Of a stretch of DNA of 64,000 bases, positions 45,001 through 48,000 are shown piece after piece. Position numbers: made by a program. This DNA is from Escherichia coli (GTDB lineage Bacteria > Pseudomonadota > Gammaproteobacteria > Enterobacterales > Enterobacteriaceae), in assembly GCF_001677475.2 (NCBI RefSeq), contig NZ_CP015229.1. One strand, 5' to 3'. Position 1 is the first letter of the stretch. Every line of letters begins with the position of its first letter.

Positions 45001-48000
45001 ATGGTATTTTCAGAGATTATGAATTGCCGCATTATAGCCTAATAACGCGCATCTTTCATGACGGCAAACAATAGGGTAGTATTGACAAGCCAATTACAAA
45101 TCATTAACAAAAAATTGCTCTAAAGCATCCGTATCGCAGGACGCAAACGCATATGCAACGTGGTGGCAGACGAGCAAACCAGTAGCGCTCGAAGGAGAGG
45201 TGAATGGAAAGTAAAGTAGTTGTTCCGGCACAAGGCAAGAAGATCACCCTGCAAAACGGCAAACTCAACGTTCCTGAAAATCCGATTATCCCTTACATTG
45301 AAGGTGATGGAATCGGTGTAGATGTAACCCCAGCCATGCTGAAAGTGGTCGACGCTGCAGTCGAGAAAGCCTATAAAGGCGAGCGTAAAATCTCCTGGAT
45401 GGAAATTTACACCGGTGAAAAATCCACACAGGTTTATGGTCAGGATGTCTGGCTGCCTGCTGAAACCCTTGATCTGATTCGTGAATATCGCGTTGCCATT
45501 AAAGGCCCGCTGACCACTCCAGTAGGTGGCGGTATTCGCTCTCTGAACGTTGCTCTGCGCCAGGAACTGGATCTCTACATCTGCCTGCGTCCGGTACGTT
45601 ACTATCAGGGCACTCCAAGCCCGGTTAAACACCCTGAACTGACCGATATGGTTATCTTCCGTGAAAACTCGGAAGACATTTATGCGGGTATCGAATGGAA
45701 AGCAGACTCTGCCGACGCTGAGAAAGTGATTAAATTCCTGCGTGAAGAGATGGGCGTGAAGAAAATTCGCTTCCCGGAACATTGCGGCATCGGTATTAAG
45801 CCGTGTTCTGAAGAAGGCACCAAACGTCTGGTTCGTGCAGCGATCGAATACGCAATTGCTAACGATCGTGACTCTGTGACCCTGGTGCACAAAGGCAACA
45901 TCATGAAGTTCACCGAAGGCGCGTTTAAAGACTGGGGCTACCAGCTGGCGCGTGAAGAGTTTGGCGGTGAACTGATCGACGGCGGCCCGTGGCTGAAAGT
46001 TAAAAACCCGAACACCGGCAAAGAGATCGTCATTAAAGACGTGATTGCTGATGCATTCCTGCAACAGATCCTGCTGCGTCCGGCTGAATATGATGTTATC
46101 GCCTGTATGAACCTGAACGGTGACTACATTTCTGACGCCCTGGCAGCGCAGGTTGGCGGTATCGGTATCGCCCCTGGCGCAAACATCGGTGACGAATGCG
46201 CCCTGTTTGAAGCCACCCACGGTACTGCGCCGAAATATGCCGGTCAGGACAAAGTAAACCCAGGCTCTATTATTCTCTCCGCTGAGATGATGTTACGCCA
46301 TATGGGTTGGACTGAAGCCGCAGACCTGATTGTTAAAGGTATGGAAGGCGCGATCAACGCGAAGACTGTAACCTATGACTTCGAACGTCTGATGGAAGGC
46401 GCTAAACTGCTGAAATGTTCAGAGTTTGGTGATGCGATCATCAAGAACATGTAATTACTACATGTATTAAATATTGAAACGGGCGTATAACACGCCCGTT
46501 GTTTTATTTATGTGGATATTATTAATAGCATGTCGAGCATATTTATATGAAGCCCATTACTTGAGTCCATATGGGCATATTTTTATAATACAACTATTAT
46601 GCAAACATTTATTTGGTATTTCGCTTTCTCCTGGAGGACACTCTTGACTGCTTTTGAGTAAACTCCATAAATCCTTGTTGAATGGTGCGATATTATAAAT
46701 AGTAATAGGGTATTCTTTATCCTTAAAGATAATACCAGATTTAACCGGTTTAAATATACTGCCAGGAGGTAGAAATATAGTAGATTGATACCAGATGATC
46801 ATTTTCATATCACCCCATATGGCTGAAAAAGATATGCCGCATGTAGGTTGAATTATTGTGTCAATTACTATCCACTTCATTTGTTATGTCTTATCCCACG
46901 GTGCTTAATATAGTTCATTTGGATGTTCATTTCTTGACTTTGCATATGTGTATATTACTCCCCCAAGAATAAATTAATTAAAAATTAATGTCATTAACTA
47001 TATAAAGCAAAATTTAAAGCAAGGAATCTCAATAGAGATTAAACAAAATGAGATTTAGTGAAAACATTAAATTATTCACTTCGTTTTAGATTTGTTTAGC
47101 TAAAATGTTATACATTCAAATGACTGAACGTTCTGTAATTAAAACATAACCTTTATGCTATTTTGTGCCAATTTGCAAAACATTATGGTTGGCCTTTTAA
47201 TATAACGATAATGATGAATATAAGCATGACCTGAGAATAAGGTTTCAATTTTTGAGTTATATAGGAATGGTTAAACCCGTTCCTGACTAAAATACATATA
47301 ATCGGATGATGACTAAACCAAAACACATGTACGTTAAGTATTGAAACGGGCGTATGGCACGCCCGTTGGTTTTATAAATATGTTAACCGTTATAAAATAA
47401 CGAATAGAAAGTCAAGTGATCACATTTCAAATATCAATTTGATAGTATTGGCCTGGTGATTATTTATGGGTAGCAATAAAAAGACAGTATTTATCATCCA
47501 TAGGGATAGTCTCTGTACTTTTATTTCCATTATGCTAATGCCTTACTGAATTATGAAGCATTTCTTAAGATTCCAACTTTAGCTAGATTAATGGTTTATT
47601 GTTTTCTACATCTTCAATATATAAAAGCGTATTATCAATGGCGTAGTAACTGCGTTTGTTATGATTAACATCAGTAACCCACCGGAAAACGCCCGCGCTT
47701 GCCAGTGTTGAACAGTATTCCCGAAATGTAGATTTTCCGCAAATATGAAGCAATGCGGCCTCTTTTATTTTAACAGGGTTCTTGGTCGTACTAACTTTTA
47801 ACAGGTTCCTGGTTCCTCTTAATAACAAAACCGTGTCATCGTGAGTAATAATTCTGATGTTATCCGTAGCCAGATAATAAATGTAATGTGCAATACGGTG
47901 ATGTTTTAATTCTGAATAAAACCAGGAGAAGTTTTGCTCTTTTCTCACTTGCTCAAACATCTTTTGAAAAACAACGACCTGATCCATCAGGATAATAACC

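Follow-up and report, generated by a model that had tools for sequence, protein, structure and literature searches.

The 64,000-nucleotide stretch of Escherichia coli DNA analysed here (contig NZ_CP015229.1; hereafter the window, in whose positions all window coordinates are given) carries the anti-adaptor gene iraM in an AT-rich islet of about 810 bp just downstream of icd, the isocitrate dehydrogenase gene. The islet is bounded on both sides by a copy of the icd 3′ untranslated region (UTR) and its terminator, it is present in some E. coli genomes and missing from others, and the islet-less alleles show at least three different junctions. An earlier note on this DNA had taken the repeats for the footprint of an att-site duplication at icd. 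That proposal was partly right: the icd 3′ end is duplicated around foreign-looking DNA, with an edge shared with phage attP, which is consistent with the footprint of an insertion at this point, but the repeat is not the attachment core of e14 or phage 21, and loss of the islet is attributable to ordinary recombination. For the origin of the islet, decay of a Campbell-type insertion by an icd-targeting lambdoid element has about an even chance of being correct; the two terminators would now insulate iraM and serve as substrates for its deletion.

The repeat was apparent both with and without gaps. In the ungapped match 35 of 39 positions were identical (46467-46505 vs 47334-47372), and the start-to-start distance of 867 bp bore out the spacing of roughly 860 bp given in the earlier note. 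Allowing three small gaps extended the alignment to 46459-46513 and 47324-47383, with about 45 of 51 columns identical (about 88-90%). Homology began 5 nt past the icd stop codon and ended just beyond the T-run, with the microhomologies ACATGT and GTTTTAT at the left and right boundaries, respectively. Relative to copy 1, which adjoins icd, the distal copy 2 has CG inserted, one A replaced by G, ATGGC in place of ATAAC as its loop, and one G more in the tail. Between the copies the GC content is 29-33%, against about 51% in icd, and the only open reading frames (ORFs) are iraM, identified by its match to NF007393, and the short ymgK; the description of iraM lying between the copies in AT-rich DNA was thus confirmed. 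Copy 2 lies upstream of the iraM promoter and downstream of the ycgX-ymgL unit, the gene order to its right being ymgL, ycgX, bluR, bluF. An intact icd continues without interruption into copy 1 and iraM, so the site in the window is free of any e14 or phage-21-type prophage; e14 is indeed absent, as had been stated.

The repeat is not a dispersed element. A 30-nt pattern with up to three mismatches occurred at two sites in the window, against none expected from shuffled sequences. When copy 2 was used as a 64-nt query, matches were found at one to four places per genome (median two) in 5,416 of 5,426 complete E. coli genomes, the set from which all allele counts below are taken, and none of these places lay under an annotated feature among the matches listed. 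About 20-27 of the E. coli matches to the icd 3′ end with its terminator were on records labelled as plasmids. Among 125 fetched loci, from many Enterobacterales and from phages, the hairpin pattern was found only at icd 3′ ends and in copy 2. Repetitive extragenic palindromic (REP) elements and bacterial interspersed mosaic elements (BIMEs) number in the tens to hundreds and are scattered over unrelated intergenic loci, a distribution that the repeat does not share. The earlier note had named a common REP-like element as the finding that would undo its proposal. The reading of the repeat as such an element, a dispersed one or a chance match, irrelevant to the history of iraM, has the palindromic form in its favour and nothing more; it is refuted by the counts, the breakpoints of the insertions and deletions described below also fall within the repeats, and its probability is practically nil. 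A transposon target-site duplication was rejected as well: the repeats are about 55 bp long and only about 88% identical, and the islet has neither a transposase nor terminal inverted repeats.

The duplicated segment corresponds to one carried by phages that integrate at icd. Phage 21 and e14 reportedly duplicate the icd 3′ end as attL and attR. In phage 21 (OL657228), 1W and D2, attP consists of a P arm, the integrase (Int) crossover core ctgctgcgccatatggg, the last 165 bp of icd, the 3′ UTR, arm sites, int and xis. The UTR in these phages contains the same hairpin as copy 1 and is followed by three CTTCCCCAAAA arm sites, while K-12 e14 and e14-type elements in Citrobacter have an analogous icd segment and then GTTATCAAAA arm sites. 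Because elements of this kind carry the icd UTR and hairpin as far as the T-run, they bring a replacement icd 3′ end through the terminator. Copy 1 was near-identical to the UTR of the phage 21-family attP. Homology between phage and host stops at ...cccgttgtttt(a) in phage 21, 1W, D2 and e14-type attL, which is also the right edge of the repeat, so that the duplication ends at the icd terminator T-run as it does in an attachment-site pair. The islet therefore resembles the phage 21/e14 attL/attR arrangement in that the same host gene end is duplicated, with the same UTR and hairpin and the same stop at the T-run, and in that foreign-looking DNA with a phage-affiliated gene lies between direct repeats. 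The comparison with e14 and phage 21 attachment sites proposed in the earlier note accordingly gave agreement in UTR, hairpin and T-run end, but placed the core inside icd, in a single copy.

A catalogue of about 110 icd 3′ ends showed one or other type of arm directly after the T-run in many Enterobacterales, either phage-21-type CTTCCCCAAAA or e14-type GGTTATCAAAA (loci L005-L106). Citrobacter, Kluyvera and Leclercia have a 'native' terminator, ACGGGAGCC...GGTTCCCGT, but it is the element-borne versions that the E. coli-type UTR resembles. The icd 3′ UTR now found in E. coli may itself have come from such an element.

The cargo of the islet also has phage affiliations. IraM stabilises RpoS under Mg2+ limitation. 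It matched phrog_4407, and homologues with 60-67% identity lie beside stxAB and nanS-p in Shiga toxin (Stx) prophages; members of the family are morons of Stx and other lambdoid phages, and a homologue is encoded in 46 phage records. A further one has IS21, GGDEF and PerC genes as neighbours, and no close homologue was named outside E. coli/Shigella, save one UniRef entry labelled Enterobacteriaceae. A homologue of ycgX, 70% identical, is found between the lysis genes and Nu1 in lambdoid prophages of E. albertii, in the same late region as the iraM-like genes. In phages, ycgX-like, lysis genes, nanS-p and iraM-like follow one another on one strand, collinear with ycgX followed by iraM on the chromosome. 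Chromosomal iraM and the phage iraM-like genes match in the coding region only, at about 70%, and shared flanks were thus ruled out; the AT-rich DNA upstream of iraM had no detectable homology to icd, phage arms or phage iraM-like loci. Another horizontally acquired anti-adaptor of the IraM family is the paralogue encoded by iraL; its locus and context are different, the gene being on the potB island of CFT073, a strain without iraM (PMC4045071). In K-12, iraM has been placed 'on the e14 prophage' (PMC4045071). This statement needs correction: K-12 iraM lies to the right of e14 attR (an icd′ stub plus copy 1), outside the prophage, and in the window iraM is present without e14.

It is conceivable that the terminator was duplicated locally, by replication slippage or as a tandem repeat and without mobile DNA, and that the intervening DNA was acquired independently or diverged later. 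The duplicated unit is only about 55 bp long and is bounded by the two microhomologies, as such an event would predict. Hairpins promote template switching, and inversion of the loop of this same hairpin in strain E30 and phage D2 is in line with this. However, a local duplication leaves unexplained both the AT-rich, phage-affiliated DNA, which is essentially confined to E. coli/Shigella as far as searches show, and the coincidence of the duplicated unit with the segment carried by icd-targeting phages. We regard this origin as very improbable.

Comparison of the 5,426 genomes revealed a presence/absence polymorphism. The icd-ymgL interval was window-like in 3,861 genomes. In a further 1,037 (~19%) there was no iraM, and a single terminator joined icd, or an icd′ stub behind a prophage, directly to ymgL. 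The latter group includes CFT073, 536, Nissle 1917, ATCC 25922, LF82, ST131 and the type strain, which we take to belong to phylogroup B2, and iraM was absent from all B2 strains seen. Genomes matching icd and copy 1 only proved to have phage-21-type attL sites or an insertion sequence (IS) at this point. In B2 genomes the single terminator is of the copy 1 type up to and including the loop (ATAAC), beyond which it runs on into the copy 2 flank, so that the junction coincides with the right edge of the repeat. Strain HH45 presents the mirror image: the icd′ stop codon is followed by a wholly copy-2-type terminator (CG insertion, A>G, loop ATGGC) and the copy 2 flank, placing the junction at the left edge. 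This allele was unique among the genomes, and the ycgX and bluF protein alleles of HH45 are K-12-type. A third arrangement was found in 13P477T and 64.1, which correspond to strain FY10 minus everything between its two IS200C copies, with 0 differences over 1,645 bp. With no fewer than three different junctions among the islet-less alleles (at the right edge of the repeat, at its left edge, and IS200C × IS200C), the data point to removal of the islet by general or IS-mediated recombination between direct repeats and not by one fixed site-specific crossover. The survey of the icd-ycgX interval suggested in the earlier note thus yielded the polymorphism, with breakpoints in the repeats, but no single site-specific junction. 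Its claim that the iraM region was acquired or left behind by site-specific recombination at icd is supported in part: the icd 3′ end is duplicated around the islet, but the junctions do not point to a single site-specific crossover, and neither integrase nor arm sites are present. Loss of the islet is ordinary genome decay, a known kind of event that involves no new mechanism. Deletion between short direct repeats or IS copies, to which the three independent junction classes removing iraM conform, accounts for the loss of the islet but not for its origin.

Two further observations concern particular lineages. The Nissle-1917-type genome EcN_Sk (NZ_CP172017, locus L133) is identical to Nissle as far as a position within the icd′ stub and, from about 6019 rightwards, shows 100% identity to K-12 over at least 2.6 kb (ymgL, ycgX, bluR, bluF), yet it has no iraM. 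It appears, judging from these matches, to hold a tract acquired by recombination with a K-12-like donor, in which the islet was skipped or lost. For the window itself, the best match to positions 36000-46400 among the complete genomes was only 98.6% over 10.4 kb of housekeeping genes, and was SMS-3-5-like; the exact IraM protein of the window is on record from E. coli assemblies. The lineage of the window appears to be poorly represented among complete genomes.

The B2 single-terminator allele may be either an ancestral empty site or a deletion. If it were the empty target, the islet could have arrived as a small circular DNA bearing iraM and the diverged copy 2, which recombined at the 3′ edge of the terminator (ccgttgtttt). 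Recombination would have been homologous or hairpin-directed and independent of the 21/e14 core, and would have restored the ycgX-ymgL terminator much as phage 21 restores the icd 3′ end. B2 sites run from copy 1 through the hairpin into the right flank of copy 2, and so relate to the islet as attB does to attL and attR with a crossover in the T-run. Among all the host and phage icd UTRs seen, copy 2 is the odd one out; the lack of an icd′ relic and of arm sites needs no explanation; and the same point is a proven hotspot for IS200C insertion. Yet we know of no recombinase and no donor that could have served, and HH45 has a copy-2-type single terminator directly after icd′, so the empty sites are not all of one type. 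The islet is also present in 042 (phylogroup D) and in SMS-3-5, which is presumably of phylogroup F and close to B2; its presence in SMS-3-5 means that parsimony favours loss in B2. Recurrent loss by recombination, moreover, is demonstrated by HH45 and by 13P477T and 64.1. Insertion of such a cassette is the chief alternative origin, though a rather unlikely one.

The explanation that we prefer is decay of an integrated prophage. A circular lambdoid element targeting icd would have integrated at the 3′ end of this gene through one Campbell-type crossover and, like elements of the phage 21/e14 family, would have brought its own icd 3′ end through the terminator, leaving one UTR and terminator on each side of the insert. 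Integrase, arm sites and almost every phage gene would have been lost in later deletions, together with the icd′ coding stub displaced by the insertion, so that what remained was the moron iraM with its promoter and two terminators. Today copy 1 would serve the convergent icd and iraM, and copy 2 would end ycgX-ymgL transcription and shield the iraM promoter, while the two repeats, and the IS200C copies beside them where present, would offer direct repeats for deletion of iraM by host recombination. Under this model the repeat's identity and its edges are explained, as are the foreign composition of the islet and the phage affiliation of its cargo.

Several results weigh against decay of a prophage. 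The Int core ctgctgcgccatatggg occurs once in the window, inside icd and about 150 bp upstream of the repeat. In an attachment-site pair the repeat would start at this core and span about 165 bp of icd coding sequence; the homology of copy 2 begins only 5 nt past the stop codon. Upstream of copy 2, collinear matches suggesting a decayed icd′ stub were convincing by eye, but under six scoring schemes the local alignments scored no higher than alignments of shuffled sequence or of AT-rich DNA from elsewhere, and an nhmmer profile built from 110 icd 3′ ends matched icd only. A metagenome scan for icd′ followed by a copy-2-type UTR gave 0 matches. No phage-21 arm site (YYTTCCCCAAAA, of which an attachment site would have three) was found in 46400-47500, and counts of this site across the window equalled chance expectation. 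A profile of e14 P′ arms (three GTTATCAAAA sites) had no match near either copy, and a candidate relic of an e14-type P′ arm to the right of copy 2 (CGTTATAAAA ... CGTATCAAAA) was dropped after an nhmmer profile of 16 e14-type arms failed to match there. No integrase or excisionase gene was present among the ORFs between the copies. Whereas the classical phage 21/e14 duplication extends from the Int core over about 165 bp of icd coding sequence and the UTR, with arm sites and int/xis beside it, only the UTR of ~55 bp is duplicated around iraM. Because the core is single and lies upstream, and icd′ relic, arm sites and integrase are all lacking, the repeat is, on sequence grounds, best regarded as the distal part of an att-associated duplication and not as the att site. 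For the same reasons the model needs at least two further deletions (icd′ stub, arms, int), one of which would have had to stop just 5 nt beyond the former stop codon, and intermediate alleles were not encountered. Phage affiliation of the inter-repeat DNA is seen in IraM, with its phrog_4407 match and its paralogues in Stx phages; the non-coding DNA of the islet had no detectable homology to any phage record searched, and phage iraM-like genes are not flanked by an icd-type hairpin. A contig scan with a conserved icd 20-mer retrieved only E. whittamii among Escherichia species and gave no outgroup polarity. Finally, all single-terminator B2 alleles are copy-1-type, which fits a true empty site in B2 and a copy 2 brought by incoming DNA.

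Other Enterobacterales indicate that icd-integrated elements can shrink in the way required. Integrase-less mini-islets between duplicated icd 3′ ends were found in Hafnia (L044, 1.9 kb), Pantoea (L083, 3.25 kb) and Kluyvera (L042, 4.05 kb), and their existence shows that such elements can indeed shrink to mini-islets. These 'grounded' prophage remnants are, like the iraM islet, small, devoid of integrase and bounded by repeats of the icd 3′ end. They differ in keeping repeats of 130-270 bp that include icd′ coding sequence, while the E. coli islet, at 0.8 kb, has terminator repeats only. In E. whittamii different genes lie between icd and pdeG, and iraM, ycgX, bluRF and ycgZ-ymgABC are absent; because of this difference in gene content, the icd-pdeG interval is considered a variable hotspot across Escherichia. 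In E. whittamii one e14-type site, AGTTATCAAAACCCC, comes after the icd terminator, and beyond it lie genes for a YebC-family regulator and a DUF302 protein, with pdeG next (L069/L128-L131). In a Citrobacter only a ycgX-like gene was found in the icd-pdeG position, and ycgX homologues in E. albertii and an Escherichia sp. are at other loci.

Table 1. Features of the icd-iraM-ycgX region of the window
Feature	Position	Strand	Basis or detail
icd (isocitrate dehydrogenase), intact	45204-46454	+	ORF, 416 aa
Phage-21/e14 Int crossover core ctgctgcgccatatggg	46290-46306, inside icd coding region		position set by comparison with phage 21 attP
Copy 1: icd 3′ UTR and Rho-independent, potentially bidirectional terminator	46459-46513	+	hairpin 46478-46500, then T-run
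iraM	46557-46880	-	NF007393, E=3.8e-50; phrog_4407, E=1.5e-49
AT-rich DNA upstream of iraM (promoter region), contains ymgK	46881-47323	-	GC 0.29-0.32
ymgK, 14 codons	47139-47183	-	translation
Copy 2: diverged duplicate of icd 3′ UTR and terminator	47324-47383	+	hairpin 47345-47367
ymgL, 36 aa, nearest gene right of islet	47420-47530	-	ORF
ycgX (DUF1398), phage-family gene adjoining islet	47583-47987	-	PF07166, E=3.6e-47; phrog_413, E=1.7e-41

Both copies have the form of an intrinsic (Rho-independent) terminator, a G+C-rich hairpin and T-run at the end of a transcription unit. Each has a 9-bp G+C-rich stem with 6 GC pairs, followed by the T-run, and was scored as an intrinsic terminator. Copy 1 folded far better than shuffled sequence (dG -21 kcal/mol, z = -4.4), and its stem was identical in all sequences examined. 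Copy 2 seems to be under weaker constraint, as mismatches in its stem weaken the hairpin in K-12 and HH45, and the K-12 version has no folding advantage over shuffled sequence. From its position, copy 1 could terminate the convergent icd (+) and iraM (-) transcripts, and copy 2 could likewise terminate ycgX-ymgL and shield the iraM promoter. A search of Rfam returned nothing over the gathering thresholds, and a weak match to tpke11 (23.5 bits vs 43) was disregarded. In two cases the loop is inverted with the stem unchanged, GTGTTATAC replacing GTATAACAC: once in E30 (L003 2686-2694) and once in phage D2 (L116 1746-1754), by comparison with window positions 46485-46493. The inversion is therefore common to a host allele and a phage 21-family attP.

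The terminators are also sites of IS insertion. In FY10, mutually identical 708-bp copies of IS200C are inserted just past the T-run of both terminators, and IS200C abuts an icd-type hairpin in 399 of the 5,426 genomes. Insertions directly 3′ of the T-run were seen in independent contexts, at copy 1, at copy 2 and at a single terminator (FY10, L132 495-510 and 2070-2085; E30, L003 2700-2712; window equivalents 46505/46506 and 47372/47373). An IS200C remnant also follows a different, native icd terminator in a Citrobacter sp. (L123, about 5150-5160). This pattern of sites suggests that IS200C has a strong target preference for the 3′ side of the icd-type hairpin and T-run.

A more speculative possibility, to which we attach little probability, is that the hairpin of the icd terminator serves DNA in general as a landing pad. 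The iraM cassette would then be an integrase-free module that enters and leaves through recombination in its own terminator copy, preserving termination for both convergent neighbours, with IS200C targeting the same hairpin and T-run. Gain and loss of iraM between lineages would in that case retune the control of RpoS stability by PhoPQ and Mg2+.

The locus shows a phage-type gene turned into a fixed but dispensable chromosomal regulator. The two terminators would insulate iraM, and the same repeats make it easy to lose, so that the region offers a clean natural example for the study of deletion between short hairpin-containing repeats and of IS200C target choice. About a fifth of complete E. 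coli genomes, those of the B2 extraintestinal-pathogen lineages, are without iraM, and at least two other lineages have lost it by different routes. Because IraM stabilises RpoS under Mg2+ limitation, its presence or absence changes the general stress response of a strain.

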